Positions 35,627 through 61,194 of a DNA stretch of 64,000 nt are shown piece by piece. A model generated the notes under the pieces. It was not told the DNA's origin. It made no database searches and saw only the letters and a program-made list of their open reading frames with translations. The stretch's first letter is position 1. Every line of letters begins with the position of its first letter. Source of the DNA: a virus; IMG/VR virus record IMGVR_UViG_3300031992_000005, positions 32,001 through 96,000 of that record. One strand, 5' to 3'. Both the position numbers and the translations under genes were made by a program.

Positions 35627-35635
35627 GAATCTCAG

Positions 35636-36247: not shown

Positions 36248-36727
36248 ATGAACAATAGAAATTATTTAGGATTCTTAAAAGAAAAACAGCAATTGTTTAA
36301 TAGAATTGGAATCAAGTGTAAAAGTTTAGATGAACAAGTTTACAAGCTTGAACAAAATGAAAAAGATCTAAGTATTCTTGTAGAAGATCTCAGCGAAAGA
36401 GTTCCATTCAGGCCATTAGTGAAATGTGGAGTAGTAGGTTACCCATTCATCTTAGTGGGAATTGATGTAACTCATGAGAATGTTGCAGTACAGTTGATAA
36501 ATACTTTCAACCATATAAAATTTGAAACAACAATCGATAAGGTAAGACTGTACTTGAGATCTCTAGAGAATATGACAGAGGAAGAAAAACTGGAGGAAGA
36601 AAGACTCCATGATCCTCGAATCTGTATCTCTGAATTAATAACATTCTATAAGAAGAATAACCTCGATTATAGAGGCCTTATCCCAAGAGGTCTTGCAATC
36701 GAACAAATCCCAGAAAACCATGAATAA
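36248..36727 (+). CDS. family A small protein, diverged outlying copy
   Basis: Central LYLRSLENMTEEEK and C-terminal LDYRGLIPRGLAIE match the anchors of the 45-55 kb array. Confidence 0.7.
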   Translation: MNNRNYLGFLKEKQQLFNRIGIKCKSLDEQVYKLEQNEKDLSILVEDLSERVPFRPLVKCGVVGYPFILVGIDVTHENVAVQLINTFNHIKFETTIDKVRLYLRSLENMTEEEKLEEERLHDPRICISELITFYKKNNLDYRGLIPRGLAIEQIPENHE

Positions 36728-36845
36728 GTTATTACAACAACTTTGCGAGGAATTACCTAATTATTCTACAGGTAAAGACGGTAAGCCTTACTTAAGGCCA
36801 TTAACTAACATGACCGAAGAAGAATTAAGGACATTTCGAATTTAA
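36720..36845 (+). pseudogene. truncated family A copy (41 codons: N-terminal and central anchors only)
   Basis: Hand translation gives MNKLLQQLCEELPNYSTGKDGKPYLRPLTNMTEEELRTFRI-stop. It lacks the whole C-terminal anchor. Confidence 0.6.
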
Positions 36846-36848: not shown

Positions 36849-37082
36849 ATGACTCTTGTAAAAAAATTAGGAGAAAAGTTATATAACTGGACAAATAAAA
36901 ACCTACACTTCCTAATTGGTATTGCAATAATAGGAATTGTCTGTTCTATTATTGGACACTATGGAACAATGGGATTTGATCTCAGGTGGTTTTTTGGATT
37001 TGAATTACCATTATACCTATTTCTCCTTTGGGCTATTTTTAAAATAATGAAAATTTTTAAAAATAATGGATCAAAAAGATAA
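36849..37082 (+). CDS. small two-TM membrane protein (77 aa)
   Basis: Hydrophobic helices FLIGIAIIGIVCSIIG and LPLYLFLLWAIFKIM. ATG at 36849. Confidence 0.55.
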   Translation: MTLVKKLGEKLYNWTNKNLHFLIGIAIIGIVCSIIGHYGTMGFDLRWFFGFELPLYLFLLWAIFKIMKIFKNNGSKR

Positions 37083-37527
37083 GGAAAAATTAATTCAGAT
37101 TATTTGTGCAATGTTTCCCTACGGTTTAAACTGCTACTACACAATAGATGAAAAGTGGCATAGTATTACCGGAGTAGAAAATGATGCGGTGAGGTTATTG
37201 GGATCTAACGGTCGTCATGAATTTGTTGAAAAGTGGGAAGGAGATCTAGATACAATCAAGATCGGACTTCGACCACTATCTACAATGACCGAAAAAGAGA
37301 AGGAAGAACTATATACAGATCCAGATACTGATTATCTTTGTCGTGCAACAGTAATTGTTCCAGAAAATGAAGAAATTTATTTTAGGTTTGTTGATACCAA
37401 AATCGAATTTCTTTATAAAAACGTTACATTCTTCTTTAAGAAGAAATTTGATATATTGGGTCTAATAGAACAAGGTTTAGCAAAAGAGTATAACTATGAT
37501 AATGATAAATCCTTGGGCAGGATATGA
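37066..37527 (+). CDS. family A small protein, diverged outlying copy
   Basis: KLIQIICAMFPYGLNC, IGLRPLSTMTEKEKEEL and FDILGLIEQGLAKE are collinear with the array anchors. Confidence 0.7.
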   Translation: MDQKDKEKLIQIICAMFPYGLNCYYTIDEKWHSITGVENDAVRLLGSNGRHEFVEKWEGDLDTIKIGLRPLSTMTEKEKEELYTDPDTDYLCRATVIVPENEEIYFRFVDTKIEFLYKNVTFFFKKKFDILGLIEQGLAKEYNYDNDKSLGRI

Positions 37528-44148: not shown

Positions 44149-44178
44149 TCCTCCCTTAACGGGGAGGGATTCTTTTTT
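44149..44178 (+). terminator. intrinsic terminator
   Basis: TCCTCCC-TTAACG-GGGAGGG hairpin followed by ATTCTTTTTT, just after the stop at 44142. Confidence 0.65.
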
Positions 44179-44215: not shown

Positions 44216-44250
44216 AAATTTATAGATACAAATTCTAAAAATATTATAAT

Positions 44251-44631
44251 ATGGATAAGATCGTTCAAGAAAGGTATTGCTCGCCTAAAGTAGCAAGATT
44301 ATTAGCAAGTAAAGGATTTGATGAACCTATTTGGACTCGTTATGAAGATAACAATGAGGTTATATTTGGTGATAAATATAATTGGAATAGTAGTCCAGTG
44401 GGACAAACATCTGCGCCAACTCAACAAATGGCTATAGACTGGTTAATAGTAAATCACGATATATACATAGAAGTATTTCCTTATTCCAAGGATGAGTATG
44501 CTTTTAGTATTAGTAAACTATTACCTAAAGACGTCGAAGGCTATCCATTACCTAATGAGGAAGAAAGTTATAAAGATATAAGAGTAGCTACAGATACTGC
44601 TCTTGAATATGTACTTGAAAACTTAATCTAA
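44251..44631 (+). CDS. hypothetical protein (126 aa)
   Basis: Intact ORF, first gene after the terminator/promoter pair. Confidence 0.55.
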   Translation: MDKIVQERYCSPKVARLLASKGFDEPIWTRYEDNNEVIFGDKYNWNSSPVGQTSAPTQQMAIDWLIVNHDIYIEVFPYSKDEYAFSISKLLPKDVEGYPLPNEEESYKDIRVATDTALEYVLENLI

Positions 44632-44846: not shown

Positions 44847-45082
44847 TCAGTAGAGAAGAAGCTAAGAGACAATGCCTTGAATGGGTAGATAAAGAAATTT
44901 CAGAAAAAGGCGAGGATTCTATATATTGCTTATCTCCTTGTATTGGAAAAAATAGCTGGACTCTAAAAGAATATAGAGATGCAGTTATTAACGATGTACC
45001 AATGGAAGGTTGCATAGACAATCCAATAGACGATTATCTTAACTATATAAAATGGAAGGATGAACATGGACGAGGAAAATAA
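44843..45082 (+). CDS. hypothetical protein (79 aa)
   Basis: ATGA overlap with the upstream gene. Confidence 0.5.
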   Translation: MISREEAKRQCLEWVDKEISEKGEDSIYCLSPCIGKNSWTLKEYRDAVINDVPMEGCIDNPIDDYLNYIKWKDEHGRGK

Positions 45083-45476
45083 GTTATTGAGATTTCTCAG
45101 TATGGCTTTACCTTATGGAGTTTTTTGTATAAACTCCGAAGATGAGAATAGTAAAGCCTATAAGCTAAAATCAATTAATAAGCATAAAGGATTATGGTAT
45201 TATGGGTTTGATGGATTTAGCTGTCTTAAACCATTACCGTATCTCCGCCCATTATCTTCTATGACCGAAGAAGAGCATAGTAACTTATTCAATGCTTATC
45301 ATTACTTAGAGGTGAAAGTAGCAAAGTCAACAGGAGATTACTTAAAAGCGGCTTATATAGGTGATGATGCTAAGTATAAGTGGCTTCTTGAAAATAAGTT
45401 TGACTTTCTAGACTTAATTTCAGATGGATTAGCTATTGAAATTACTGAGGAAAACAATCCGTATAAGAAGTTATGA
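45060..45476 (+). CDS. family A small protein, array copy 1
   Basis: KLLRFLSMALPYGVFC; LPYLRPLSSMTEEE; KWLLENKFDFLDLISDGLAIEITEENNPYKKL. Confidence 0.8.
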   Translation: MNMDEENKLLRFLSMALPYGVFCINSEDENSKAYKLKSINKHKGLWYYGFDGFSCLKPLPYLRPLSSMTEEEHSNLFNAYHYLEVKVAKSTGDYLKAAYIGDDAKYKWLLENKFDFLDLISDGLAIEITEENNPYKKL

Positions 45477-45685
45477 AAACATTTCACTTATTTGGAAAAT
45501 GGCAAGTAACCTTTCTTCATAATATTTACATTAATGAAGATACAAAGAGACTGTCAGAGCTAATAGTTACCCTTATTCCAACTATTCAAATCCTAATAGG
45601 CGGAAAAGGGATAGATGATGAGATATTGATTTCTTGGTTAATATTTACAATACAAGTAGATAATGGCTATTCAAACAGTAAATAA
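45473..45685 (+). CDS. hypothetical protein (70 aa)
   Basis: ATGA overlap with copy 1. No family A motif. Confidence 0.45.
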   Translation: MKTFHLFGKWQVTFLHNIYINEDTKRLSELIVTLIPTIQILIGGKGIDDEILISWLIFTIQVDNGYSNSK

Positions 45686-46064
45686 ATTATGCACCTCAAT
45701 TGGACAATCTAACAACCTGAGATCATTAGGACTTGATATCCATACCGCCGACACTTATTGGTGGTTTTCAGGCGATAAGTTCTATATGGGGACGATGGAT
45801 GATGGTGATTTCGACGAAAAAGCTGATCAACCTTCTTGGAGCTTAGCTGCACTGGAAAAGTTAATTCCGCCAACTATAACTGATGATGAAGGTGAAACTT
45901 ATAAAATTTCTATAACAAAAAATGAACAAAGTAAAAAGTGGACTGCTTGCTATGTAAACAAAGAGCACGATCAGGTCTGCTGTATCTTCTGTGAAGAATC
46001 TCCGGACCTAATAGATGTTTTTTATAACACGGTATGTATGTTACTACTTGCGAAAAAAATATGA
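45663..46064 (+). CDS. family E protein (paralogue of 54153..54575)
   Basis: Shares S.GQSNNLRSLGLDIHTADTY and QPSWSLAALEKLIP with SAEQSKRLVELGIDVNTADM and EPAWSLSALLDLLP. Confidence 0.6.
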   Translation: MAIQTVNKLCTSIGQSNNLRSLGLDIHTADTYWWFSGDKFYMGTMDDGDFDEKADQPSWSLAALEKLIPPTITDDEGETYKISITKNEQSKKWTACYVNKEHDQVCCIFCEESPDLIDVFYNTVCMLLLAKKI

Positions 46065-46432
46065 ATACTGCAGAAGAATTTATAAAAAAGTATCCTGTAG
46101 GTACATTAATTTCATACATAGAAGGAGTACAGTATGTACGATCTGGTGCAAGAACTATCTTCAAAATAGGTAGATATGAACGGCGCACGAATGATCCTTG
46201 GGGATATTATATGTATGGGACCTACTGCGGATTTAACTTTCAAACAACAAGTTATAAGAAAGAATATTCTACATCAGACTTACCAAAGTGGCGATGTATC
46301 ATTTGCGAGACTGACCCCTTCGGTACTTCTTTAGGAATACTATCACATAAATTTAACGACGTTAGACTTGCAAACGACCTTGAAACTAGTATATTCAATG
46401 ACTGCATAACTAACGGAAGAGTAATCTCATGA
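46061..46432 (+). CDS. hypothetical protein (123 aa; start refined)
   Basis: The ATG at 46061 forms an ATGA overlap with the upstream stop (MNTAEEFIKKYPVG...). Confidence 0.55.
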   Translation: MNTAEEFIKKYPVGTLISYIEGVQYVRSGARTIFKIGRYERRTNDPWGYYMYGTYCGFNFQTTSYKKEYSTSDLPKWRCIICETDPFGTSLGILSHKFNDVRLANDLETSIFNDCITNGRVIS

Positions 46433-46863
46433 CTAAACTAGAAAAGCAGTTAATACTTCAGGATCTCTGTTCGAGATTATTATGCGGTGTAGTTTGTAGA
46501 ATCACTTTTACTTACAGTAATGAAACTACATTTGGCGAAGAAGTTGAGAATGAGGTTGATGATACAATTAGTATGATCAACATTAAACGAGAAACAGTTT
46601 TCGCGGACTACTTAGGCCGTGAATTTGATATTGAAAATGTTAAGCCTTATCTTCGTTCAATGGATGATATGACAGAGGAAGAATATAAAGAATATTGGAA
46701 TATTGATAATCGGTCATATTCTTGTCCAATGGTCTGTGCACATATCCCCGCTTCAGAAAGAATAGATTGGCTTAATAAACGTCACTTTGATTACCGTGGA
46801 CTTATTGGAAAATGCCTGGCCATTAAAGTTGATGAAATTAATAATCCTTATGATAAACTATAG
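46429..46863 (+). CDS. family A small protein, array copy 2
   Basis: KQLILQDLCSRLLCGVVC; VKPYLRSMDDMTEEE; IDWLNKRHFDYRGLIGKCLAIKVDEINNPYDKL. Confidence 0.8.
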   Translation: MTKLEKQLILQDLCSRLLCGVVCRITFTYSNETTFGEEVENEVDDTISMINIKRETVFADYLGREFDIENVKPYLRSMDDMTEEEYKEYWNIDNRSYSCPMVCAHIPASERIDWLNKRHFDYRGLIGKCLAIKVDEINNPYDKL

Positions 46864-46879
46864 ACATTCCAAACCTAAG

Positions 46880-47392
46880 ATGACTGAACAGTGTAAGCAG
46901 CTATTACTTCAAGATCTCTGCTCTAGACTACCATATGGTGTAAAAGTGTATAACACAAGCTTCGCAGAGCCGTATCAGGTACAAACATTATTCGGTAGAA
47001 AGTCAGAGGACGAGTTTATTATGAAAGAAACTTATAAATCTTTTGACTTAAATAACCGTCCAACTCGTATAAAAAATTATACTGGATACTTAGATCGTTT
47101 AAAGCCATATCTTCGACCTATGTCAAGTATGACTAAGGAGGAGAAATTGGAATATATATCCATTATAGATGGAACGCGATGGACTACCACCGTAGGTTTA
47201 GAGGAGAAAATAATTCTATCCATTGACTTAGTAGAGTGTAAAGCCGAAGATGGGACACCTGATAATATATACGATATCATTCAAATGACTCCCATTGATT
47301 GGCTACTAGAGAGACATTTTGATATTAGGGGTCTTATCTATAAAGACCTTGCTATTAAAGTGACAGAAGAAAATAATCCTTATAAAATATGA
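46880..47392 (+). CDS. family A small protein, array copy 3 (start refined)
   Basis: ATG at 46880 (MTEQCKQLLLQDLCSRLPYGVKV); LKPYLRPMSSMTKEE; IDWLLERHFDIRGLIYKDLAIKVTEENNPYKI. The track's upstream extension is an out-of-frame read of copy 2. Confidence 0.8.
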   Translation: MTEQCKQLLLQDLCSRLPYGVKVYNTSFAEPYQVQTLFGRKSEDEFIMKETYKSFDLNNRPTRIKNYTGYLDRLKPYLRPMSSMTKEEKLEYISIIDGTRWTTTVGLEEKIILSIDLVECKAEDGTPDNIYDIIQMTPIDWLLERHFDIRGLIYKDLAIKVTEENNPYKI

Positions 47393-47796
47393 CACAGGAA
47401 GAAAAATTGCTTTTATTAAAAAGTCTTTGTGAAATGTTGCCTTATAAGGTGAAAGTAGAAATCATTTCATATGGACAAGAGACTTTGAAACCTTGGTTTG
47501 GGGAGTTATCTTGTAAAGACTTAGATTGTTTTATAGTTGATGTAGCATACAAAAGTGTTAAGCCATACCTCCGTCCGATGTCAAGCATGACTGAGGAAGA
47601 AGAAAAAGAGTATAGGAAGACTCAAATTACAAAATGGATTAAAAGTGTTGATTGTGCAGGTGGAGGATACTATGACCATAGAGACACCTTAAAAACATTT
47701 GATTGGCTAAAAGCTAATCATTTTGATTATAGAGGTTTAATCAAGAGAGGTTTAGCCATTAAGGTAACTGATGAAAATAATCCTTATAAATCATGA
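47389..47796 (+). CDS. family A small protein, array copy 4
   Basis: MTQEEKLLLLKSLCEMLPYKVKV; VKPYLRPMSSMTEEE; FDWLKANHFDYRGLIKRGLAIKVTDENNPYKS. ATGA junction. Confidence 0.85.
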   Translation: MTQEEKLLLLKSLCEMLPYKVKVEIISYGQETLKPWFGELSCKDLDCFIVDVAYKSVKPYLRPMSSMTEEEEKEYRKTQITKWIKSVDCAGGGYYDHRDTLKTFDWLKANHFDYRGLIKRGLAIKVTDENNPYKS

Positions 47797-48134
47797 CTCA
47801 GGAGGAGAAAAAAATTTTGCTCAAAGATCTTTGTGGTAGATTACCTTATGGAACAATTTATGATATTACAATTGGTGGGGTAACCTATGTAAAAGTATCA
47901 TTAAATTCATTTTATTATGGTTTAATTGAAAAAAATTTTAATAATGGGCAATTACAATCAATAGTTCCATATCTTAAAAAAAATGATATGTCATTTGAAC
48001 ATAAAGGTTTTTATTTAGAAAATCTTGATTATGTAATTGATTATTATAACTCTAATCATATTGATTATAGAGGATTTATTGAGAAAGGACTAGCTATTGA
48101 AGTGACTAATGAAAATAATCCATATAAGTTATGA
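47793..48134 (+). CDS. family A small protein, array copy 5 (central anchor degenerate)
   Basis: MTQEEKKILLKDLCGRLPYGTI. The central anchor has decayed to VPYLKKNDMSFEHKG. C-terminal NHIDYRGFIEKGLAIEVTNENNPYKL. ATGA junction. Confidence 0.8.
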   Translation: MTQEEKKILLKDLCGRLPYGTIYDITIGGVTYVKVSLNSFYYGLIEKNFNNGQLQSIVPYLKKNDMSFEHKGFYLENLDYVIDYYNSNHIDYRGFIEKGLAIEVTNENNPYKL

Positions 48135-48532
48135 CACAAGAAAGTAAAGAACTGATTTTAAAGGATATATGCGGGAGACTCCCTTATGGAACAATTGTTC
48201 AAATATCTCTTTATAGAAATGATGAAAAAAGAAGTGATATTGAATTAGATCCTCATGTAACGGAGAATATTTGGGAAATAATTGATAAATATCATGCGCT
48301 TCCCTATCTACGTCCAATGTCAAGCATGACGGAGGAAGAAAAGATAATACAAAAAACATATATTTATCATTTTTCAGGAAATAATCTTCCTAATTATGAA
48401 GGTGATTTTGTATTTGAAGATGAAGTACATGAATACATTGATTGGCTAAACGCTAATCACTTCGACTATAGAGGCCTTATCGGAAAAGGACTTGCAATCG
48501 AAGTAACGGAAAGTAATAATCCTTATGAATAA
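48131..48532 (+). CDS. family A small protein, array copy 6
   Basis: MTQESKELILKDICGRLPYGTIV; LPYLRPMSSMTEEE; IDWLNANHFDYRGLIGKGLAIEVTESNNPYE. ATGA junction. Confidence 0.85.
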   Translation: MTQESKELILKDICGRLPYGTIVQISLYRNDEKRSDIELDPHVTENIWEIIDKYHALPYLRPMSSMTEEEKIIQKTYIYHFSGNNLPNYEGDFVFEDEVHEYIDWLNANHFDYRGLIGKGLAIEVTESNNPYE

Positions 48533-48953
48533 TATAATGCAGGAAGATAAAAAAATACTTCTCCAGGATCTTTGTGCAAGATTACCGTATGGAGTAAAAA
48601 TAACAGATGGTTTGAATGTAATCAAAGCAGACCCATTTATCAGTATTGGTGTATTTGTTTATGATGGTAAGTGGAAACCCTATCTCCGTCCAATGTCAAG
48701 TATGACGGAGGAAGAGTATGAAACACTGAAGTCTTTAAGTACTATCTATATTCCCACTGATAGTAGAAATATAGGATTTGAAGATTACGGTATACTAGTA
48801 TTTACGCACCATCTCACCAATAATACTTATAGTTTCAAATTAAACATAAAAGTAATTGATTGGCTTCTTGAAAATCATTTTGATTACAGAGGTCTTATTG
48901 AGAAAGGCCTTGCTATAAAAGTGACAGAAGAAAATAATCCATATAAGTTATGA
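48525..48953 (+). CDS. family A small protein, array copy 7
   Basis: KKILLQDLCARLPYGVKI; WKPYLRPMSSMTEEE; IDWLLENHFDYRGLIEKGLAIKVTEENNPYKL. Confidence 0.85.
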   Translation: MNNIMQEDKKILLQDLCARLPYGVKITDGLNVIKADPFISIGVFVYDGKWKPYLRPMSSMTEEEYETLKSLSTIYIPTDSRNIGFEDYGILVFTHHLTNNTYSFKLNIKVIDWLLENHFDYRGLIEKGLAIKVTEENNPYKL

Positions 48954-49417
48954 CAGAACAGGATAAAAAATTACTCTTAATAGATCTCAGTGCAAGGTTT
49001 CCATATGGAGTCATTGTTAGGCATGCAGATCATTTAGTTGACTCCGATGGTAATTATACTGGACAATTTTGGTATAAACGAGGTTATCTATATGATATTT
49101 GTAGGATAGATAATATAACAACTACAATTATCGAAAGTGAAGGTAGCGATGAAGAAGGTAATGAGCATATTTGTGACCTAGAAAGATCTCTGCCTTATCT
49201 CCGCCCAATGTCAAGTATGACGGAGGAAGAGATAAAAGAATTTTATAAAATTGAAAATATAATACCAAAGATGGGATATATTTGCCCGTCAAAAGATTGG
49301 CATTTTACTACCAATGGTTTTGATTGGCTTAATGCTAATCACTTCGACTACAGGGGTCTTATTGAGAAAGGACTTGCTATTGAGGTAACTGATAAAGATA
49401 ATCCATACATATTATGA
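48950..49417 (+). CDS. family A small protein, array copy 8
   Basis: MTEQDKKLLLIDLSARFPYGVIV; LPYLRPMSSMTEEE; FDWLNANHFDYRGLIEKGLAIEVTDKDNPYIL. ATGA junction. Confidence 0.85.
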   Translation: MTEQDKKLLLIDLSARFPYGVIVRHADHLVDSDGNYTGQFWYKRGYLYDICRIDNITTTIIESEGSDEEGNEHICDLERSLPYLRPMSSMTEEEIKEFYKIENIIPKMGYICPSKDWHFTTNGFDWLNANHFDYRGLIEKGLAIEVTDKDNPYIL

Positions 49418-49557
49418 CAAAATATTTAATTATTTTAAATCCAGTAGATGGAATATATCAAGTTGATATTGATTTATATGATTCAGAAGAAGCTGCTCGA
49501 CTTAATTCCTTAATTGATGAAGAAGATATTTATAAAATAATTCCAATAGAATTTTAA
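49414..49557 (+). CDS. hypothetical acidic miniprotein (47 aa)
   Basis: Hand translation gives MTKYLIILNPVDGIYQVDIDLYDSEEAARLNSLIDEEDIYKIIPIEF. ATGA overlap with copy 8. Confidence 0.4.
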   Translation: MTKYLIILNPVDGIYQVDIDLYDSEEAARLNSLIDEEDIYKIIPIEF

Positions 49558-49560
49558 AAC

Positions 49561-50040
49561 ATGACAAAAGTCAGGATAGAACAAGATAAAAATTTACTAT
49601 ATCAAGACATTTGTGCAAGATTGCCTTACGGTGTGATAGGGCAAATTAGCATAGAAGTACTTGACGGAACCTATGATATAAATAGCGGACACCTTGAATA
49701 TAAAGATGTTGATGTAGATGTTGAATTACTTGGTATACAAGAGGAAGAGATAATCTTTTCGACGATTAATGAAACATATGACGTAAATACATGTACATAT
49801 TTAGACTTTACTCCATATCTCCGTTCGATGTCTAGTATGACTGAGAAAGAGAAGGAAGAGTATTGTAATCTACAATGTATGTTTCTTTATAGCAGCCAGT
49901 ATCCAGTAACAGAAGCTCATAAACTGTTTGATTGGCTTCTTGAGAATCATTTTGATTATCGTGGCCTTATTGAAAAAGGTCTTGCCATTGAAGTTAATGA
50001 AAGTAATAATCCGTATAAAGAGTATGATACAAGAAAGTAA
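49561..50040 (+). CDS. family A small protein, array copy 9
   Basis: KNLLYQDICARLPYGVIG; FTPYLRSMSSMTEKE; FDWLLENHFDYRGLIEKGLAIEVNESNNPYKEYDTRK. Confidence 0.85.
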   Translation: MTKVRIEQDKNLLYQDICARLPYGVIGQISIEVLDGTYDINSGHLEYKDVDVDVELLGIQEEEIIFSTINETYDVNTCTYLDFTPYLRSMSSMTEKEKEEYCNLQCMFLYSSQYPVTEAHKLFDWLLENHFDYRGLIEKGLAIEVNESNNPYKEYDTRK

Positions 50041-50413
50041 AAAATTACTAATTCAAAACCTTTGTGCAATGTTACCTTATGGAGTAATGTGCCAAGTAGA
50101 CGTTGGATGCGCGGGTTTAGATGATGGAAAATTAGAAGAGATTGATATTCCAGAGGAGCGTGTGAGATTTGCTGATGATGGTTATTGGGATGCAGATATA
50201 GAAGATGTTAAACCTTATCTTCGTCCAATGTCTAGTATGACAGAGGAAGAGAAGAAAGAGTACCATAAGTTATGCGATAATTACTATGACGTATACTTTG
50301 ATAGTGTTGCTAGCCTGGACTGGCTCAATGCTCATCATTTTGACTACAGGGGCCTTATTGAAAAAGGTCTCGCTATTGAAGTTAATGAAAGTAACAATCC
50401 TTATAAATTATGA
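50024..50413 (+). CDS. family A small protein, array copy 10 (start refined)
   Basis: ATG at 50024 (MIQESKKLLIQNLCAMLPYGVMC); VKPYLRPMSSMTEEE; LDWLNAHHFDYRGLIEKGLAIEVNESNNPYKL. Confidence 0.85.
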   Translation: MIQESKKLLIQNLCAMLPYGVMCQVDVGCAGLDDGKLEEIDIPEERVRFADDGYWDADIEDVKPYLRPMSSMTEEEKKEYHKLCDNYYDVYFDSVASLDWLNAHHFDYRGLIEKGLAIEVNESNNPYKL

Positions 50414-50505
50414 AAGACAAAGAAAAAAAATGTTATTGTTATCCCTTCATCTTATATGAGAGATTATGATAATAACAGAGAGGAAATCTTCAAATTAGGG
50501 AAGAA

Positions 50506-50856
50506 ATGGCTACAAAACAAGCCATTGCCGAAGATTATGACCTAGACAATATCATCACTAATGACATGGGTGAGATATGGCATGAGGTTGGTGGTCAGGA
50601 TGGCATGTACGATAATTTCCCAATCAAGAGGGTGTATCGTGACAATGGAACTGTCAGAGTATATGCTATTGATAGTGGAGGTGGAGTTGCCATTATTGCA
50701 GGGAAAAATCAGTTTCAGATTCTTACACTTGGAGAAGATGACGGCTGGCACTTTCTTAATTCACGTAGAATATATGAAACATTCTATGGTAGTAAAACGG
50801 ACTTTGTTTATCTGATTTCAGAAGCATTGTCTTTATTTAATAATATCGAATTATAA
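50506..50856 (+). CDS. hypothetical protein (116 aa), not family A
   Basis: Intact ORF with no family A anchors. Confidence 0.55.
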   Translation: MATKQAIAEDYDLDNIITNDMGEIWHEVGGQDGMYDNFPIKRVYRDNGTVRVYAIDSGGGVAIIAGKNQFQILTLGEDDGWHFLNSRRIYETFYGSKTDFVYLISEALSLFNNIEL

Positions 50857-50879
50857 AAAATACGAATTAGAAAATCAAT

Positions 50880-51038
50880 ATGAAAAAAGTATTAATCAGT
50901 ATTTATCATTTTTTCTTCAAGAGGAAAAGATGCAAACATTGTGGGTGTGAATTACATAAATATAACACTTACAAGAATGGTTGGAAAGACTATTGCTGTG
51001 ATTGTGAAGACTTTTGTAGATATACTGGTAATTTATAA
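50880..51038 (+). CDS. Cys-rich miniprotein (52 aa)
   Basis: Hand translation gives MKKVLISIYHFFFKRKRCKHCGCELHKYNTYKNGWKDYCCDCEDFCRYTGNL, with 7 Cys and CxxC-type spacing. Confidence 0.4.
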   Translation: MKKVLISIYHFFFKRKRCKHCGCELHKYNTYKNGWKDYCCDCEDFCRYTGNL

Positions 51039-51043
51039 TAACA

Positions 51044-51337
51044 ATGAAAACAATTAAAACTCCTAAATACAAGCATTCTAATAATGGAACACCTTATGAA
51101 CATTTAGGGAATAAGGATGAAAGAAAAGAAGCAAGAAAATTTGTTAAATCATTGAGGCACAAATTATTGCTTAATATTCCATTGTCTGACGCTGAAAAAA
51201 GTATTGTAGAAGAGTTTGAAATCACAAAAGATTATAAACTCGATACAAATCACGACGTAATTATCTACAGAGAATTTAAAAATTACGATAATGAAAGGTG
51301 GGTTAATGAAGATGAAATTTATAATTCTAAGAATTAA
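51044..51337 (+). CDS. hypothetical protein (97 aa)
   Basis: Intact ORF. No motif recognised. Confidence 0.5.
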   Translation: MKTIKTPKYKHSNNGTPYEHLGNKDERKEARKFVKSLRHKLLLNIPLSDAEKSIVEEFEITKDYKLDTNHDVIIYREFKNYDNERWVNEDEIYNSKN

Positions 51338-51345
51338 TAAAGGTT

Positions 51346-51786
51346 ATGTACGACGAAAAATTTATAGATGTTTTTAACGAACATTATCCATTTGAAAGAT
51401 ATATCGTTAAGACTCCAAAAGCAGTGGGATTGCTATTTGACGACGCATTATTAACTGAAATATTTATTCCAGATGCTGAGGAAAAAGCTAATCGTCCTTA
51501 CCTAAATAAAGACAAAATTAGCATAAAAATACAAGGTCCTGCTGGGGAAATGAGATTCTGGTTCTATGACTTCGAAGAACATATTCGCCTAAATATTATT
51601 AGAATTATAATAGAGGATATTGGAGATTATCAATATGAGTGTTTATATATTGATAACGAAGATATGGAACCGTTAATAGATGAACTCAAAACTCAAAAGT
51701 CATTAATAGAAAAGAAATATAATATTTGTAAAATAAAACAAAACCTAGTAGACAAAAGTTTTGCAGACGAATCAATCTATAAATAA
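51346..51786 (+). CDS. hypothetical protein (146 aa)
   Basis: Intact ORF. No motif recognised. Confidence 0.55.
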   Translation: MYDEKFIDVFNEHYPFERYIVKTPKAVGLLFDDALLTEIFIPDAEEKANRPYLNKDKISIKIQGPAGEMRFWFYDFEEHIRLNIIRIIIEDIGDYQYECLYIDNEDMEPLIDELKTQKSLIEKKYNICKIKQNLVDKSFADESIYK

Positions 51787-51788
51787 CT

Positions 51789-52250
51789 ATGACTCAAACC
51801 AAATTAACCGAACAAGGTAAGCAGTTACTCTTAATGGATCTCTGTGCGAGGTTGCCTTATGGAGTAATGTGCGATATGGGATTAAAACATCCATTGCAAT
51901 TACAAAGAATTCTTGTGGATAAACTTGATGGTAATTTACTGGATTTTTATGAAGATGGTAATGATTATCAAGTATATTTAAGTGAAGTTAAGCCATATCT
52001 CCGTTCAATGTCAAGTATGACAAAGGAAGAAAGTATAGAATTACAAACGATTCTAAATGATTGGTGGAATAAAGAGCTTTTTACATTAACAGAAGAACCA
52101 ATGATAGAATATGCATTGTCTTCTATTAATTATACTCTTAATCCTACATTGTTTGATTGGCTTAATAAGAAACATTTTGATTATCGTGGGCTTATTAAAA
52201 AAGGCCTTGCTATAAAAGTAACGGAAGAGAATAATCCTTATAAACTATGA
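51789..52250 (+). CDS. family A small protein, array copy 11
   Basis: GKQLLLMDLCARLPYGVMC; VKPYLRSMSSMTKEE; FDWLNKKHFDYRGLIKKGLAIKVTEENNPYKL. Confidence 0.85.
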   Translation: MTQTKLTEQGKQLLLMDLCARLPYGVMCDMGLKHPLQLQRILVDKLDGNLLDFYEDGNDYQVYLSEVKPYLRSMSSMTKEESIELQTILNDWWNKELFTLTEEPMIEYALSSINYTLNPTLFDWLNKKHFDYRGLIKKGLAIKVTEENNPYKL

Positions 52251-52675
52251 CAGAACAAGGTAAGCAGTTACTCTTGATAGATCTTTGTGCAAGATTACCT
52301 TATGGAGTAAAAGTATGGTATAAATATGGTGCATGGTTTTCTGAAAAGTTTGCAACATCAATAAGATTGGCTGATGAAAAAATTGCCCTTTCCTCTAAAT
52401 TCAATAAAGAAGGCGATTGGTTTCCCATCGAAGAAGCAGGGAAAATTCTAATTAAACCTTATCTCCGTCCGATGTCAAGTATGACTGAGGAAGAAAAAGT
52501 TCAATTATCTCAATATGCTTGCATTGGAGAAGATTTAAATGGAGAATTTATAGACGAAGTACAAAGAAAGGATTGTGCGCCATATATTGATTGGCTCAAT
52601 AAACACCACTTTGACTATCATGGGTTGATTGAGAAGGGTTTAGCGTTAGAAGCACCAAAAGGAATGTATAACTAA
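52247..52675 (+). CDS. family A small protein, array copy 12
   Basis: MTEQGKQLLLIDLCARLPYGVKV; IKPYLRPMSSMTEEE; IDWLNKHHFDYHGLIEKGLALEAPKGMYN. ATGA junction. Confidence 0.85.
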   Translation: MTEQGKQLLLIDLCARLPYGVKVWYKYGAWFSEKFATSIRLADEKIALSSKFNKEGDWFPIEEAGKILIKPYLRPMSSMTEEEKVQLSQYACIGEDLNGEFIDEVQRKDCAPYIDWLNKHHFDYHGLIEKGLALEAPKGMYN

Positions 52676-52688
52676 AACTTACAAAAAG

Positions 52689-52805
52689 ATGCCTTATATA
52701 TATTTTCCTATTGAATTTTCTTCTTATGTAGATTATGTTAAATACCTAAAAGAAAAAAGTTTCGCTATTGACGTAACAGATGTAATTAACTCATATAAGT
52801 TATGA
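52689..52805 (+). pseudogene. relic of a family A C-terminus (38 codons)
   Basis: Hand translation ends ...KSFAIDVTDVINSYKL-stop, a decayed GLAIEVTEENNPYKL anchor that still keeps the ATGA junction to copy 13. Confidence 0.5.
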
Positions 52806-53248
52806 CAGAAGAAGAAAAAGAAATATTGTTAAAAGACCTTTGTGGTAGATTACATTATAGAGTCCTTGTTAGTTACAAAGGCTTAATATACCCACTATTC
52901 AGTGTTGTCCCTACACAACATTTTCAAATCACGCTTGATAGTAGTAAATATTGTGGATTAGTGCATATCAGTCTTGATGATGATGGTGAAAAGCCAAAAC
53001 CTTATCTTCGTCCGATGTCAAGTATGACTGAGGAAGAGAAGAGGGAATATTTCTCATTTATTGGTGGTGTGAGACCATTTGACTGTGATTTTTCTGCATA
53101 TCCGATAGAGTACAAATTCGTTTATGAACATGATATAAATAGTTATATTGATTGGCTCAACAAACACCACTTTGACTATCGTGGATTAATTGAAAAAGGC
53201 CTCGCCATTGAAGCACTAGAAGGAATGTATAATTTAAAAATGGAATAA
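52802..53248 (+). CDS. family A small protein, array copy 13
   Basis: MTEEEKEILLKDLCGRLHYRVLV; PKPYLRPMSSMTEEE; IDWLNKHHFDYRGLIEKGLAIEALEGMYN. Confidence 0.85.
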   Translation: MTEEEKEILLKDLCGRLHYRVLVSYKGLIYPLFSVVPTQHFQITLDSSKYCGLVHISLDDDGEKPKPYLRPMSSMTEEEKREYFSFIGGVRPFDCDFSAYPIEYKFVYEHDINSYIDWLNKHHFDYRGLIEKGLAIEALEGMYNLKME

Positions 53249-53252
53249 AATT

Positions 53253-53405
53253 ATGACTGTTCAAATAAATAAACCAAGATGGAAAAATAAAGAGTGGACG
53301 TTTAATTTAATTCCATATTTGTCAATAACAAAAATCTCTAACTTAGTTATTGCAATTAACATTGGATGGCTATTTTGGGGAATAACAATTAGTAATAATT
53401 TCTAA
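53253..53405 (+). CDS. small membrane miniprotein (50 aa)
   Basis: Hand translation gives MTVQINKPRWKNKEWTFNLIPYLSITKISNLVIAINIGWLFWGITISNNF. Confidence 0.35.
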   Translation: MTVQINKPRWKNKEWTFNLIPYLSITKISNLVIAINIGWLFWGITISNNF

Positions 53406-53411
53406 ATAATC

Positions 53412-53567
53412 ATGGAACAGAAAAGCAAAGAATTACTATTAAACCTTCTTTCAGAATTAAATGAGAAAGGTTTATTATATATCTATGACAAGGATGAATC
53501 AAATTACTCAATGGATTGGGTATTTTTCGACGGAGAAAAATTATGCATAAAAATTGAGAAAATCTAG
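53412..53567 (+). CDS. hypothetical miniprotein (51 aa)
   Basis: Hand translation gives MEQKSKELLLNLLSELNEKGLLYIYDKDESNYSMDWVFFDGEKLCIKIEKI. Confidence 0.35.
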   Translation: MEQKSKELLLNLLSELNEKGLLYIYDKDESNYSMDWVFFDGEKLCIKIEKI

Positions 53568-53569
53568 TC

Positions 53570-53785
53570 ATGGAAGAATTATTATTCGATAACGTAATGG
53601 ACGGTGAATCATTGGTTAAAGATATATTAAATACTGATGGCGTAAGCTCTATCACGGACGATAATGGAAAATCGTATTGGTGGAATACCATTGATAAGAC
53701 AAGAAATTATCAAGTTAGGAAATATAAATATGATAGAGCACTCCAAGACTATTCAGTTATTTCATATAAAATAAAGGAATTGTAA
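53570..53785 (+). CDS. hypothetical protein (71 aa)
   Basis: Intact ORF. Confidence 0.45.
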   Translation: MEELLFDNVMDGESLVKDILNTDGVSSITDDNGKSYWWNTIDKTRNYQVRKYKYDRALQDYSVISYKIKEL

Positions 53786-53795
53786 TAATTATATT

Positions 53796-54140
53796 ATGAT
53801 ACCGGAAAGTAAAAGGCTATTAATCACAGACCTCTGTGCAAGACTACCTTATGATACTATAGTTAGTGTTGCAGAAGGAGGGATTGATGGGGTTCAATGG
53901 AATAAGTCAACATTAAATTTCTATCTACTTCATCAGATCGAAGAGGAAGATGGTTGGGAATTCATTAAACCCTATCTACGTCCAATGGATGATATGACAG
54001 AGGAAGAATCTGAAGAATTTTCCAATATGGAAATCGTAGGTTACTCTAACTATGATTGGCTAAATGCCCATCACTTTGACTATAGAGGCCTTATCGAAAA
54101 AGGACTTGCAATAGATTGTACTGGTTTAAATATTTACTAA
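53796..54140 (+). CDS. family A small protein, array copy 14
   Basis: SKRLLITDLCARLPYDTIV; IKPYLRPMDDMTEEE; YDWLNAHHFDYRGLIEKGLAIDCTGLNIY. Confidence 0.85.
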   Translation: MIPESKRLLITDLCARLPYDTIVSVAEGGIDGVQWNKSTLNFYLLHQIEEEDGWEFIKPYLRPMDDMTEEESEEFSNMEIVGYSNYDWLNAHHFDYRGLIEKGLAIDCTGLNIY

Positions 54141-54152
54141 AATTAAAAAACT

Positions 54153-54575
54153 ATGTCTAAAATTGGTACTTCAGCAGAACAATCTAAGAGACTCGTAGAA
54201 TTAGGAATTGATGTAAATACTGCTGATATGGCATTATGTGGTACACAATTATTAACAACAAGTTACGTATTAGCAAAAAAGAAATTTAGTAATGCTGGTG
54301 AAATCCCTATTGAACCTGCATGGAGTCTTTCTGCTTTGTTGGATTTGTTACCATGTAGCTTGTCTTTATATCCAGAAGCCACGGAAGAAGGAGTAAAAGA
54401 AGGTAAATATAGAAGCTCTGATTTAATTGCTTCAAAAGAAGGTTTTCTTAGAAAAAGATATGATGGCGATTATCAATACAGATACGATGGAATTAAAGTG
54501 GTAGGAGATTTTCAAAATCCTACTGATGCAGTATTTGAAATTATTTGTTGGTTAAAAGAAAATAATAAAATATGA
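54153..54575 (+). CDS. family E protein (paralogue of 45663..46064)
   Basis: See 45663..46064. Forms an ATGA junction to copy 15. Confidence 0.6.
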   Translation: MSKIGTSAEQSKRLVELGIDVNTADMALCGTQLLTTSYVLAKKKFSNAGEIPIEPAWSLSALLDLLPCSLSLYPEATEEGVKEGKYRSSDLIASKEGFLRKRYDGDYQYRYDGIKVVGDFQNPTDAVFEIICWLKENNKI

Positions 54576-54976
54576 CACAAGAAGGAAAATTTCTTTTATT
54601 GAAAGACCTAAATGCAAGGTTGCCTTATGGAGTTTATGTAGAGCATACAACCACAAAAATAAGAGGCAAATTAAAGGGTATGATGTTTGAACATATCTAC
54701 AATGACACAGATTCTATTCAAGATATAAATGCTTGGGCAATGTTTTTCGGGGATGAATATGTGGATGCTACATATTTTAGGCCAATCTTACGTCCAATGT
54801 CAAGTATGACAGAGGAAGAAAGAAAGGAGTATAAGCATCTTGTAGCATTTAGTGGTAGTCCTGATGGAGCAACAAATTTTACAGACTGGCTAAATGCTAA
54901 TCACTTCGACTATAGAGGTCTTATTGAAAAGGGTTTAGCTATTGAAGTAACAGAAAAGAATAATCCATATAAATAG
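54572..54976 (+). CDS. family A small protein, array copy 15
   Basis: MTQEGKFLLLKDLNARLPYGVYV; FRPILRPMSSMTEEE; TDWLNANHFDYRGLIEKGLAIEVTEKNNPYK. Confidence 0.85.
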   Translation: MTQEGKFLLLKDLNARLPYGVYVEHTTTKIRGKLKGMMFEHIYNDTDSIQDINAWAMFFGDEYVDATYFRPILRPMSSMTEEERKEYKHLVAFSGSPDGATNFTDWLNANHFDYRGLIEKGLAIEVTEKNNPYK

Positions 54977-55321: not shown

Positions 55322-55669
55322 ATGAATACTATAAAAATATTCGTCAAGAATTTATTTGGGTTACCGGTCACTAGAGTTGATGTCTTGAAACGGGCTAGAG
55401 ACTATAAATGGACTAGTGGTCTATGTATTGCCATCAAATGTGCTTTATGGGACTTTAATATTCCTACCGAACCTAAAAATGTTGTCTCGAAGTTGTATTT
55501 CCCAGAGTTCAATCGAAAAAGTGCACTAGTATTTGGCGCAGATCCTTACAGTGTATTTTGGTGGGAAGTACACAATTGGTCTACAGGTAGGGAAAGATAT
55601 TTAAATTACCTGATAAACTGTTATAAAGATGATAAAATTAATTTAAGAAAATTAGCATATGATGAATGA
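55322..55669 (+). CDS. family C protein, copy 1
   Basis: LPVTRVDVLKRA ... GLCIAI ... FPEF ... FGAD ... FWWE..NWSTGRERYLNYLINCYKDDKINLRKL. Confidence 0.7.
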   Translation: MNTIKIFVKNLFGLPVTRVDVLKRARDYKWTSGLCIAIKCALWDFNIPTEPKNVVSKLYFPEFNRKSALVFGADPYSVFWWEVHNWSTGRERYLNYLINCYKDDKINLRKLAYDE

Positions 55670-56063
55670 TTGGAAATTAAAAATAAAGGGAGCTATAAAG
55701 AAGTTTATTTTGAAGATTATTCAAGTATATTTCTTTTATATACCCAAACCCGTAACGAGAGTTGAAGTTTTAAGGCGTGTAAAATCACTTAAAACTGGCA
55801 AAGGACTATGTGGAGGTTTACTCTATGTAATGGGGCAGGAATTTGATTTAGATATTTCTATATCTACTGCATTTCCACTATTCACTAATGAAAATGCACG
55901 AAAATTTGGAGCAAAACCAGTAGAAGAATTCATGTCGCGCTATGAATACTGGTGGAAAATGGGAAAATGGAATACTGGTAGAGAAGATTTTCTAGATTGG
56001 CTGATAGAACAGTATAAAGATGATACGACAAATCTAAGAAAATTAAAATACCATGAAGATTAA
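55659..56063 (+). CDS. family C protein, copy 2
   Basis: PVTRVEVLRRV ... GLCGGL ... FGAKP ... YWWK.GKWNTGREDFLDWLIEQYKDDTTNLRKL. Confidence 0.7.
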   Translation: MMNDWKLKIKGAIKKFILKIIQVYFFYIPKPVTRVEVLRRVKSLKTGKGLCGGLLYVMGQEFDLDISISTAFPLFTNENARKFGAKPVEEFMSRYEYWWKMGKWNTGREDFLDWLIEQYKDDTTNLRKLKYHED

Positions 56064-56433
56064 AGATTACCTAATAGTAGCACTAATACTGGCACTTTCT
56101 ACTCTAGCACTATTAATTATAGGATTTTTTATAGGAATTCCCGTATATCTTTTTCTAACTTGGAATATTTTTATAGGATGTGTCTTATCCTCTATTTACC
56201 TAATAGTCTTTTTTGAATTATTCTTTGGTTCTAAGGAAGAATATGTTGAATTTGAAGTAGGAGATGTATTGAAATACTTGGAAGAAGATGCTAGAACATG
56301 GCAAGGAAAAAACTATGTAATAGTAAAAAATATTGGTGAATTAGATGGGAAAAAGATCCTAGAATTTGAAGATGGTACTTGGGAATATGCACATAAAGCT
56401 AATCACAATTATTATAAAATAGGAAGAAAATGA
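56053..56433 (+). CDS. membrane-anchored protein (126 aa)
   Basis: Two N-terminal TM helices followed by a soluble domain. Confidence 0.55.
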   Translation: MKIKDYLIVALILALSTLALLIIGFFIGIPVYLFLTWNIFIGCVLSSIYLIVFFELFFGSKEEYVEFEVGDVLKYLEEDARTWQGKNYVIVKNIGELDGKKILEFEDGTWEYAHKANHNYYKIGRK

Positions 56434-56936
56434 ATAAGAAAAAAGTACTATTTGCCGACTTAGATGGAACATTAATCGAGACGGCAACAGGAAAAACATT
56501 TCCTCTTGGTATCTGGGATATGAAATTTAAGTTTGATGTCCTAGATGCTATAAAAAAGTATAACTTCGAAGGTTTAATAATCGTCACTAATCAAGGTGGC
56601 ATTGAAAAAGGATTAGTTAATGAGAAACACTTTGTAAAAGCAAAGATGGCTTATGTAACTAAATCTTTGGAAGAATATTTACATATTCCAGTCAAATTTG
56701 TTTACTGTGCGTCCAATGACAAGGATTGTGGGCATAGAAAACCTAATACCGGTATGTTAGAAAACGCTTATTGGAAGTTCATTATTAATCAATGGAAAAT
56801 GAATATCAATAAAAGTGATATGCTTATGATAGGTGATGCTAGTGGTAAACCTGGCCAATTCTCTGATTCAGATAAAAAGACCGCAGAGAATTATGGCATT
56901 GACTATATGGATATCGAAGATTTTAAGGCTCTCTAG
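56430..56936 (+). CDS. HAD-IIIA phosphatase, polynucleotide 3'-phosphatase (PNKP/GmhB)-like
   Basis: Motif I FADLDGTLIET, then ATGKTFP..IWD (as in PNKP-type 3'-phosphatases), motif II IIVTNQGGI, K in HRKPNTGM, motif IV MIGDASG...SDSD. Confidence 0.7.
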   Translation: MNKKKVLFADLDGTLIETATGKTFPLGIWDMKFKFDVLDAIKKYNFEGLIIVTNQGGIEKGLVNEKHFVKAKMAYVTKSLEEYLHIPVKFVYCASNDKDCGHRKPNTGMLENAYWKFIINQWKMNINKSDMLMIGDASGKPGQFSDSDKKTAENYGIDYMDIEDFKAL

Positions 56937-56960
56937 AAATAGAGAGCTTTTTATTTTTTC
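56928..56960 (+). terminator. intrinsic terminator
   Basis: Perfect GCTCTCTA-GAAA-TAGAGAGC hairpin followed by TTTTTATTTTTT. It overlaps the stop codon. Confidence 0.75.
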
Positions 56961-57939: not shown

Positions 57940-58331
57940 AAATAAAAATAGAAACAGAAGGAGTAGTGATAGGTTCAAGGACTTTGCCAGAATTTAAGTT
58001 TCAAGTTCTGAACTTTATGAGTATGTTATGGGACAATATTACTAACCCTGATTGGGGAAAATCTAGTGATCCCGATCCCCATTATATTCGTAGCTATACT
58101 TATGCAAATTTTCACGTCGCAATTAATAATCTAAAATTTGAATTAGGGCGATTGGAAAAAGAAACCGGTATCCCTGCCTGTGAAGAACAGGAAATGATAA
58201 CTAGGATGAAATGTTTAGGTGGCGGTAACGGTAGAACTGAAGAGATTTGGACTAAACTCCTAAAAGATCTTACAAAAAAGTACAACTTAAAATACAAATT
58301 AAATGGTAACCGAAGTACAAATAGTAGATAA
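57936..58331 (+). CDS. hypothetical protein (131 aa)
   Basis: ATGA junction. No motif recognised. Confidence 0.5.
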   Translation: MKIKIETEGVVIGSRTLPEFKFQVLNFMSMLWDNITNPDWGKSSDPDPHYIRSYTYANFHVAINNLKFELGRLEKETGIPACEEQEMITRMKCLGGGNGRTEEIWTKLLKDLTKKYNLKYKLNGNRSTNSR

Positions 58332-60873: not shown

Positions 60874-61194
60874 ATGAAACTAAAGACTACAGAAATCATT
60901 ATTTATTATGATGGACCGCAGGTAGTAGTAGCAGAGGATGAAAACAAACAGCTTTACATAAACACATTGTATGAAATTAATAGCCTGGGAGATTTTCTCT
61001 ACTTAACTGCGAAAACAACAGAAGAAAACCTAGAAGAATTTAAAACAGGAAAAATTGATCTTAGATCACTTTACAAGGCTCCTTATTATGTAAGCACTGA
61101 TGAATTCGGCGACGTATTTAATGCAAGAGAAATTAAGGAATCTGAAGTGAAAAGCTCAATGCTTCCAGACAAAAACTTTTATTTAGACAGATGA
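60874..61194 (+). CDS. hypothetical protein (106 aa)
   Basis: Intact ORF. Confidence 0.5.
   Translation: MKLKTTEIIIYYDGPQVVVAEDENKQLYINTLYEINSLGDFLYLTAKTTEENLEEFKTGKIDLRSLYKAPYYVSTDEFGDVFNAREIKESEVKSSMLPDKNFYLDR

Follow-up and report, generated by a model that had tools for sequence, protein, structure and literature searches.

A window of 64,000 nucleotides (nt) of phage DNA (positions 32,001-96,000 of the IMG/VR record IMGVR_UViG_3300031992_000005; all coordinates below are positions in this window) carries a tandem array of 15 genes for small proteins of an apparently undescribed family, in which three conserved anchors alternate with two variable segments: a first one (V1) between the N-terminal and the central anchors, and a second one (V2) between the central and the C-terminal anchors. 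The two segments behave as cassettes that reassort independently of each other, by homologous recombination in the three anchors, within arrays as well as between phages. An earlier note on this DNA, made from the sequence alone, had described the array and its anchors but missed this reassortment.

Independent reassortment of two cassettes

Across 220 unique proteins of the family, about 155 types of V1 and about 134 types of V2 occur in 205 combinations, and a single V2 type is joined to 30 types of V1. There are 144 pairs of proteins in which V1 is at least 50% identical and V2 less than 25%, 771 pairs in which the reverse is true, and only 18 pairs that are alike in both segments. Cassette types of the window recur in other phages with 70-100% identity, and several chimeric genes can be traced to individual copies of the array. 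These copies are listed here with the other family members of the window, each with its E value against a profile hidden Markov model (HMM) built from the family (aa, amino acids):

36248..36727, + strand: diverged copy, 159 aa, with a 35-aa N-terminal extension (HMM E 4e-27; alignment)
36720..36845, + strand: truncated mini-copy, 41 aa, MNKLLQQLCEELPNYSTGKDGKPYLRPLTNMTEEELRTFRI (HMM E 1e-6, in two stretches; translation)
37066..37527, + strand: diverged copy, 153 aa (HMM E 2e-32; phrog_10841 E 1e-6)
45060..45476, + strand: copy 1, 138 aa, with degraded N and C anchors (HMM E 2e-34)
46429..46863, + strand: copy 2, 144 aa, whose V2 is the commonest type, ..NIDNRSYSCP..AHIPAS.R (HMM E 4e-52)
46880..47392, + strand: copy 3, 170 aa, the longest, source of the second AlphaFold model (HMM E 7e-45; pLDDT 78.9)
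47389..47796, + strand: copy 4, 135 aa, in ATGA overlap with copy 3 (HMM E 5e-48)
47793..48134, + strand: copy 5, 113 aa, with a degraded central anchor and a very short V2 (HMM E 5e-34)
48131..48532, + strand: copy 6, 133 aa (HMM E 3e-46)
48525..48953, + strand: copy 7, 142 aa, with the shortest V1 (27 aa) and a long V2 (46 aa) (HMM E 3e-44; phrog_10841 E 1e-10)
48950..49417, + strand: copy 8, 155 aa, whose V1 recurs in P0039 (HMM E 6e-47)
49561..50040, + strand: copy 9, 159 aa (HMM E 4e-47)
50024..50413, + strand: copy 10, 129 aa, source of the first AlphaFold model (HMM E 6e-52; pLDDT 94.3, pTM 0.86)
51789..52250, + strand: copy 11, 153 aa, identical to the database protein P0008 (HMM E 1e-52)
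52247..52675, + strand: copy 12, 142 aa, with the tail ..LEAPKGMYN (HMM E 2e-43)
52676..52801, + strand: decayed remnant of a C anchor, ..DYVKYLKEKSFAIDVTDVINSYKL* (found by eye; translation)
52802..53248, + strand: copy 13, 148 aa (HMM E 5e-43)
53796..54140, + strand: copy 14, 114 aa (HMM E 1e-36)
54572..54976, + strand: copy 15, 134 aa, whose V2 is swapped in strain L003 (HMM E 1e-46)

The protein P0039 combines the V1 of copy 48950 with the V2 of copy 52247 (copies are named here by their starts), P0012 the V1 of copy 51789 with the V2 of copy 46429, and P0091 the V1 of copy 51789 with the V2 of copy 52247. Along a shared cassette the DNA is 97-100% identical, and the background level is reached inside the flanking anchors. 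The V2 of copy 46429 alone has relatives in 50 other proteins. Exchange is also seen between close strains: in L003, which is 98% identical overall, the V2 of copy 54572 has been swapped outright, from KEYKHLVAFSGSPDGATNFT to QEYGLVLCDELSINQY, and in the contig L001 (99.86% identical to the window) homology ends inside the C anchor of copy 52802, at about position 53230. When the parental copies were sought beside the chimeric genes in two other phages, the chimeras stood alone or among other types; since a chimeric gene can be the sole copy in a huge phage that is otherwise different, exchange must reach beyond a single array.

Recombination in the anchors also deletes, truncates and fuses copies. 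In the mini-copy the central anchor is fused directly to the N anchor, and both the barrel described below and the C anchor are absent, and the decayed remnant fills the 126-nt gap between copies 12 and 13, where it overlaps the ATG of copy 13 by the usual ATGA. Natural in-frame fusions of two copies, independent of each other and of 242-388 aa, are found in P0001, P0121, P0122, P0124, P0125, P0128 and P0167, with a V1 and a V2 of its own in each half; they hint that neighbouring copies are able to work side by side.

The copies of the window

Run against the six-frame translation of the entire window, the family HMM recovers 17 open reading frames (ORFs; E 4e-27 to 1e-52), and otherwise only the mini-copy. 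ORF list, translation and HMM thus bear out the earlier note, which had placed 15 co-oriented ORFs of 113-170 aa at the same starts and two diverged copies upstream of them, and the three collinear anchors (N-terminal K.LLL.DLC.RLPYG[VT], central, and a C-terminal one that runs from DWL to NNPYK[LI]) appear in the MAFFT alignment as it had described them. Its gap lengths of roughly 20-65 and 15-65 aa were right in being variable and slightly too wide, as V1 measures 27-60 aa and V2 10-50 aa across the window copies. Similarly, the one sixth of the window assigned to the family is correct for the span of the array, and the family coding sequence amounts to just 11.4% (7,314 nt, or 64% of 45060..54976).

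All the copies lie on the + strand, with frequent ATGA overlaps, and all 17 reading frames are intact. The encoded proteins are acidic, with a median isoelectric point (pI) of 4.8 and a net charge as low as -16. A few copies depart from the common layout: copy 47793 lacks the MSSMTEEE part in the alignment, copies 52247 and 52802 share the alternative tail ..LEAPKGMYN, and copy 53796 terminates in ..GLNIY. Between the anchors the copies are as unrelated as the earlier note had stated, since they are not alignable and their identity lies at the level of shuffled controls (for V1, a median of 0.17 against 0.16 when shuffled). A profile-profile comparison of three V1 types, which could have revealed hidden homology, found none (probabilities of at most 7%), with shallow profiles.

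Old paralogues under purifying selection

Among the window paralogues the anchors show a synonymous divergence (pS) of 0.74, with a minimum of 0.53, and a ratio of nonsynonymous to synonymous divergence (pN/pS) of 0.30. Synonymous sites in the anchors are therefore saturated and the copies old, so that the anchors are kept alike by protein-level selection. Recent amplification and gene conversion as the cause of this likeness are excluded by the same saturation, and the word "amplified" in the earlier note does not hold if taken to mean a recent event.

Nor are the variable parts hypervariable in the mutational sense of the word that the same note had used. Between the window and the 98%-identical strain, V1, the anchors and unrelated neighbouring genes all have the same pN/pS of 0.17, so the variable parts are not hypermutating, and their types recur elsewhere, as seen above. 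The idea that these segments might turn out to be alignable and to evolve neutrally finds the opposite on both counts: they cannot be aligned, and they are under purifying selection. In the same pair of strains the pN/pS of V2 is 0.36, with all the nonsynonymous changes in copy 54572. Synonymous divergence between the strains reaches 0.055 in the anchors and 0.028 in V1, a difference that short conversion tracts from paralogues would fit.

Two known sources of programmed diversity were considered and rejected. Diversity-generating retroelements (DGRs), which likewise are found in phages and diversify a binding protein, vary their targets at adenine-templated positions, whereas the V parts of this family differ completely from copy to copy and are stable between strains; hypermutation of this kind is ruled out by the pN/pS values and by V segments that are no closer to each other than shuffles. 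No reverse transcriptase was detected in the scanned ORFs of at least 200 aa, and no pair of template and variable repeats was found. Shufflons need inverted repeats and a site-specific recombinase; inversion of this type is rejected because the copies are all co-oriented, in the window and in nearly all other loci, and no recombinase was detected in the scans of the window ORFs.

A predicted fold of barrel and helices

An AlphaFold2 model of copy 50024, obtained with an alignment of 134 sequences, has a predicted local distance difference test score (pLDDT) of 94.3 and a predicted template modelling score (pTM) of 0.86. In this model the N anchor forms a helix (residues 3-19), followed by five strands (22-67), the last of which is the KPYLRP stretch of the central anchor, a helix (74-83) that begins with MSSMTEEE, a hairpin (85-92), another helix (95-103; DWL..HF) and a confidently predicted, extended C-terminal segment. 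The model of copy 46880, whose V1 is unrelated, follows the same plan with seven strands (pLDDT 78.9). As modelled, then, each protein is one compact domain made of a helix, an SH3-like barrel (V1 plus KPYLRP), the start of a helix, V2, a further helix and an extended segment; V1 is predicted to supply the first four or more strands of the barrel, and V2 a helix and hairpin or a longer element.

The earlier note had pictured two inserts presented by a fixed scaffold. Given the model of copy 50024 and the same plan in copy 46880, the first of these "inserts" would be the body of the barrel and not a loop, and the anchors would be joints between sub-structures. The sequence of this predicted barrel is not conserved at all between copies.

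In Foldseek searches the strand region matches bacterial L24/KOW proteins and the Tudor domains of SMN and PHF1 (probabilities 0.97-0.99, E 0.04-0.1, over 47-70 residues), with template modelling (TM) scores of 0.4-0.69 on the target and about 0.3 on the query and 10-23% identity; the PDB matches of copy 46880 are weak and again of the barrel class. The best PDB fold matches of the barrel are to bacterial L24, with Bacteroidota ribosomes first, and are nonsignificant. Matches to the whole protein are restricted to uncharacterised viral models. These barrels have a five-strand topology like that predicted for V1 plus KPYLRP, and no counterpart of the flanking conserved helices or of the C-terminal segment; none of the 134 members has a Pfam KOW or Tudor match. 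On the models, the likeness is thus one of fold class and not of family membership.

A very large family restricted to phages

No member of the family has a match above the curated cut-offs in Pfam-A, NCBIfam or PADLOC, or a PDB sequence-profile match, so the family is as unrecognised as it seemed to the earlier note, and the HMM search against libraries that the same note had proposed as a possible refutation assigned no well-characterised domain. The best consistent weak Pfam match is Ribosomal_L9_N, in the C anchor of 18 of the 134 members (E >= 0.015). The part of the C anchor concerned, RGLIEKGLAIE, also matches the mitoribosomal protein mL87 (E 0.49); neither match is significant. A match to the ubiquitin-interacting motif of S5a (..LSSMTEEE.., E 0.4) was dismissed as a chance word match, and the sole match to an anti-CRISPR family was AcrF31, in a single copy (E 0.21; 12 bits, where the cut-off is 27).

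The only library match is PHROG 10841, of unknown function, found by seven of the eight copies tested (E 1e-10 to 4e-06); the diverged copy 36248 has none. This group contains gp046 of the Cellulophaga phage phi10:1 and gp097/gp098 of phi13:1, which belong to the same family and show the three-anchor layout (..LPY.., KPILRPLSDLT, WHFD.FGLIEKGLAI) at about 33% identity to the window family. They are the only homologues in GenBank phages, all of them distant (33% identity), and a DNA search of GenBank phages found nothing. In these phages the homologues lie among small hypothetical genes, with two adjacent copies in phi13:1. Nine residues are invariant in both branches: P18, L66, R67, D107, L111, I112, G115, L116 and A117.

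We define the family (profile A2) by an N-terminal helix with ..LPYG., the stretch KPYLRP(M/L)S..T.E, the stretch ..FD..GLI..GLA.. and a length of 110-170 aa, all present in the 17 window copies (E <= 4e-27). A profile search of 1.84 billion cluster representatives yielded 10,489 clusters at 50% identity with E<=1e-3, of which 851 reach E<=1e-30; the Cellulophaga branch alone has 2,150 relatives, some of them marine. Intact homologues in separate phages number in the thousands, single-copy ones included. The family is very large and restricted to phages, all its finds being on phage-like contigs.

A locus of 20 kb holds between one copy and at least 27, almost always co-oriented, with one minus-strand copy among more than 100 loci. 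Relatives come from scaffolds of rumen metagenomes and from IMG/VR contigs 300-413 kb long. One of the latter (L042; 413,021 bp, range 240057-260398) has 27 co-oriented copies in 20 kb, in an array that may extend further, and another (L083; 387,654 bp) has 15 within 20 kb. The Cellulophaga phages, with genomes of 54-77 kb, have 1-2 copies each, compared with 17 here and at least 27 per 20 kb in the 300-413-kb relatives. All the GTDB genomes that contain the family are assemblies derived from metagenomes, and their labels point to ruminant rumen or gut in nearly every case; one of them, a 410-kb single-scaffold "genome", is also listed as a virus in IMG/VR.

Genomic setting of the array

The window is part of a huge phage, most likely of rumen origin, because its relatives lie on 300-413-kb contigs, rumen scaffolds and GTDB assemblies labelled as rumen or gut, and metagenome bins suggest hosts among the Bacteroidota. 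Contigs from JGI and ENA that are 98-100% identical to the array come from several samples, and P0008, the protein identical to copy 51789, is recorded on a contig of 353,905 bp. The G+C content of the window is about 33%, tRNA genes are absent from it, and Rfam gave no match in its entire length.

The array lies in a 12.7-kb stretch of the + strand that also contains a PNK3P gene and, besides the 15 copies, about 18 further small ORFs; 12 junctions in this stretch are ATGA overlaps. Such overlaps suggest co-transcription and coupled translation of the stretch, whose sequence also offers candidate signals at its edges:

44149..44178, + strand: strong intrinsic-terminator-like hairpin with a T run, upstream edge of the unit
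44223-44250, + strand: sigma-70-like match, TAGATA-16-TATAAT
56430-56936, + strand: PNK3P polynucleotide 3'-phosphatase gene, last in the unit
56925..56960, + strand: strong intrinsic-terminator-like hairpin with a T run, downstream edge, directly after the PNK3P gene

Some of the other small ORFs of this stretch are related to each other or accompany the family elsewhere. The ORF 44251-44631 (+) matches phrog_12005 and has homologues within 10 kb of the family in 33 loci. ORFs 45663-46064 and 54153-54575 (+) are paralogues (31% identity, E 6e-8) found near the family in 12-16 loci, and ORFs 55322-55669 and 55659-56063 (+) are adjacent paralogues (40% identity, E 7e-24). Upstream of the unit, three proteins of 679, 295 and 703 aa (37801-39840, 41106-41993 and 42031-44142; +) contain one to three repeats of a module of about 150 aa, marked by "LWTIxDAKxGDVL" and "PATKEQ" and with no Pfam or NCBIfam match. 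In 33-37 other phage loci, homologues of these proteins occur at most 10 kb from members of the array family, which shows that both families travel together.

Farther from the array, the window also encodes a DHH phosphoesterase and the following features:

12147-13727, - strand: class I aminoacyl-tRNA synthetase of the Glu/Gln type (Pfam tRNA-synt_1c, E 1e-92, and anticodon-binding domain)
20978-22471: nucleotidyltransferase, adjoining the amidoligase cluster
22699-26850, - strand: amidoligase, glutamine-fructose-6-phosphate-aminotransferase-like protein, COOH-NH2 ligase and glutamine amidotransferase
35627-36247: stretch of 621 nt free of ORFs, partly G+C-rich, upstream of the first diverged copy
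58303-59064: SMC/RecF-like ATPase
61191-62111, + strand: BspA-type leucine-rich-repeat protein with a weak, sub-threshold dockerin-like stretch
62221-63828: GyrB-like protein, after the BspA-type gene

Phage-encoded aminoacyl-tRNA synthetases are typical of very large phages. The 621-nt stretch at 35627-36247 folds no better than its shuffles (z -1.1).

Comparison with known systems

The closest parallel is found in HsdS, the specificity subunit of Type I restriction enzymes, whose gene alternates variable and conserved parts (variable-conserved-variable-conserved) and in which crossovers in the conserved stretches give hybrids where each variable part retains its specificity (PMC3874165). Layout and independent reassortment of two parts are the same here, in an analogy of logic alone: HsdS binds DNA and holds HsdM through coiled-coil conserved regions, whereas the members of this family are acidic proteins of about 130 aa, built on a predicted barrel and encoded in tandem phage arrays. 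They have no Pfam match to HsdS and no sequence relationship with it, and the predicted helix and beta-barrel differ from its fold. By analogy, HsdS would be the best model of how the family diversifies, and possibly of how it works.

Expansions of small domains are also known from other very large phages, as in the Bacillus phage G, where a zinc ribbon is present in about 35 copies, proposed to be transcription factors (PMC7824862). This is likewise a small domain at tens of copies in a very large genome, with another fold and no two-cassette reassortment described, whereas the family studied here spans thousands of phages. Tandem arrays of divergent small paralogues, diversified by recombination with cassettes, are described for poly-immunity loci and for the cassette arrays of polymorphic toxin systems (PMC3482391). 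Compared with these systems, the family is encoded by phages, lacks a toxin gene and any SUKH or Imm-type Pfam domain, and exchanges internal sub-domain cassettes instead of C-terminal tips.

In kind, then, a lineage-specific expansion in large viruses, diversified by recombination at conserved joints, is known. Literature searches with the motifs, with the PHROG number and for multi-copy families of rumen jumbo phages found no description of the family. Neither the array nor the fold plan seems to have been described before, nor, above all, does the way in which two sub-domain cassettes reassort independently.

A proposed modular repertoire of binding proteins and its alternatives

We propose that these proteins make up a combinatorial repertoire of intracellular binding proteins. 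The core built by the anchors would be a shared fold nucleus, and probably a surface for a common partner or for self-association, whereas V1 and V2 would each supply specificity, much as the two target-recognition domains of HsdS do. The most likely targets would be variable components of the host, for instance defence or takeover targets in Bacteroidota of the rumen. The earlier note had already seen in the array a pattern resembling a diversified repertoire, and the results support that resemblance. Taken as a whole, the combination of old paralogues, joint recombination and a modular repertoire of binders seems to us to stand slightly above an even chance. Among the possible roles, host-directed interference, either as counter-defence or as takeover, is the most likely one because of the acidity and small size of the proteins, their restriction to phages, the non-structural setting of the operon and the combinatorial turnover; we hold it tentatively, as a clear minority possibility.

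Several points weigh against this explanation. Almost all the sequences used for comparison were assembled from short metagenome reads. The matches to known folds are of a generic kind and do not reach E <= 0.001 against PDB in any case, and the long V2 of copy 46880 (residues 102-133) is modelled with pLDDT below 50. The profiles behind the statement that V1 types are not alignable are shallow, with an effective number of sequences (Neff) of 1.3-2. Purifying selection and old paralogy would equally fit a set of fixed, specialised housekeeping adaptors, and the functional half of the proposal is read from the pattern.

Among the alternatives, the one that survives best is that the proteins are nucleic-acid-binding regulators or chaperones, with each copy serving a different transcript or promoter of the phage or the host. 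Small beta-barrels of the Hfq, KOW and Tudor kind frequently bind RNA or DNA, and the best PDB matches of the predicted barrel are to ribosomal L24, Tudor, PAZ and Hfq-like proteins. The sub-threshold Ribosomal_L9_N matches in the C anchor point the same way, and an expanded small domain has its precedent among jumbo phages (PMC7824862). However, proteins with a median pI of 4.8 and charges down to -16 would be unusual for such binders, the fold matches all fall short of significance (best E 0.04) and Pfam searches reveal no nucleic-acid-binding domain, so we regard this role as unlikely.

A second alternative is that the proteins are packaged in the virion or ejected from it, the anchors being a packaging or processing signal and the variable parts the payload. 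A model for short conserved segments with variable bodies is offered by T-even phages, whose internal proteins have a short targeting sequence in common and differ in their bodies from phage to phage, and the restriction of the family to phages would agree with it, as would the many proteins that jumbo phages package. Yet the targeting sequence of those internal proteins is N-terminal and is cut by the prohead protease, whereas the conserved parts here are, as modelled, three internal structural elements of one fold and not a terminal tag. Moreover, the phi10:1 record notes virion proteins as "part of structural virion" and carries no such note for the homologue gp046, and the family's genes lie beside genes of nucleotide metabolism and RNA repair, not beside head or tail genes. 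Packaging seems to us a rather improbable role.

It might also be that the array consists of drifting or selfish paralogues, gained and lost by unequal crossing-over at the junctions and individually functionless. Remnants and a truncated copy do occur, 20-kb loci differ in copy number between one and at least 27, and neighbouring copies are weakly more alike (rho -0.25, p 0.02). Functionless copies are hard to reconcile with 17 of 17 intact frames despite saturated synonymous divergence, with pN/pS values of 0.17-0.30, and with thousands of intact homologues in separate phages, some of them single-copy, which makes drift very unlikely. Finally, we give little credit to the idea that the shuffling is an artefact of metagenome assembly in which paralogues or strains were joined at anchors repeated many times per genome, for which the short-read origin of the sequences would speak, because the longest exact match between window paralogues is only 29 nt (median 14), below the final k-mers of the assemblers (k141, NODE_ labels), because the same cassette differs by 5-30% of its amino acids between contexts, and because the same chimeras, always with intact frames, come from several independent samples and sources.

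Significance

The modular repertoire of binders stays as our preferred explanation. In its boldest form, which we consider less likely than not, huge rumen phages would carry a germline-encoded repertoire in which more than 100 barrel cassettes and more than 100 second cassettes are continually re-paired at three joints, giving each phage 10-30 different binders of two parts each, aimed at variable targets that belong to host defence or are surface-independent. Phages would then have their own equivalent of the way in which restriction enzymes reassort their specificity domains, and with it a large class of counter-defence proteins that is new.

The family is among the larger wholly uncharacterised protein families of phages, with no name, domain entry or paper found for it, and in some phages of 400 kb it fills the greater part of 20 kb. 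It also offers a natural experiment in modular protein evolution, with three near-invariant joints and two cassettes that are freely exchanged. The anchors give a handle on the turnover of these repertoires in microbiomes, as degenerate primers or a profile can retrieve whole repertoires from metagenomes. If the cassettes do specify targets, such collections would amount to a ready catalogue of proteins that bind components of Bacteroidota from the rumen, and could lead to defence or takeover targets not yet recognised in hosts that resist cultivation.

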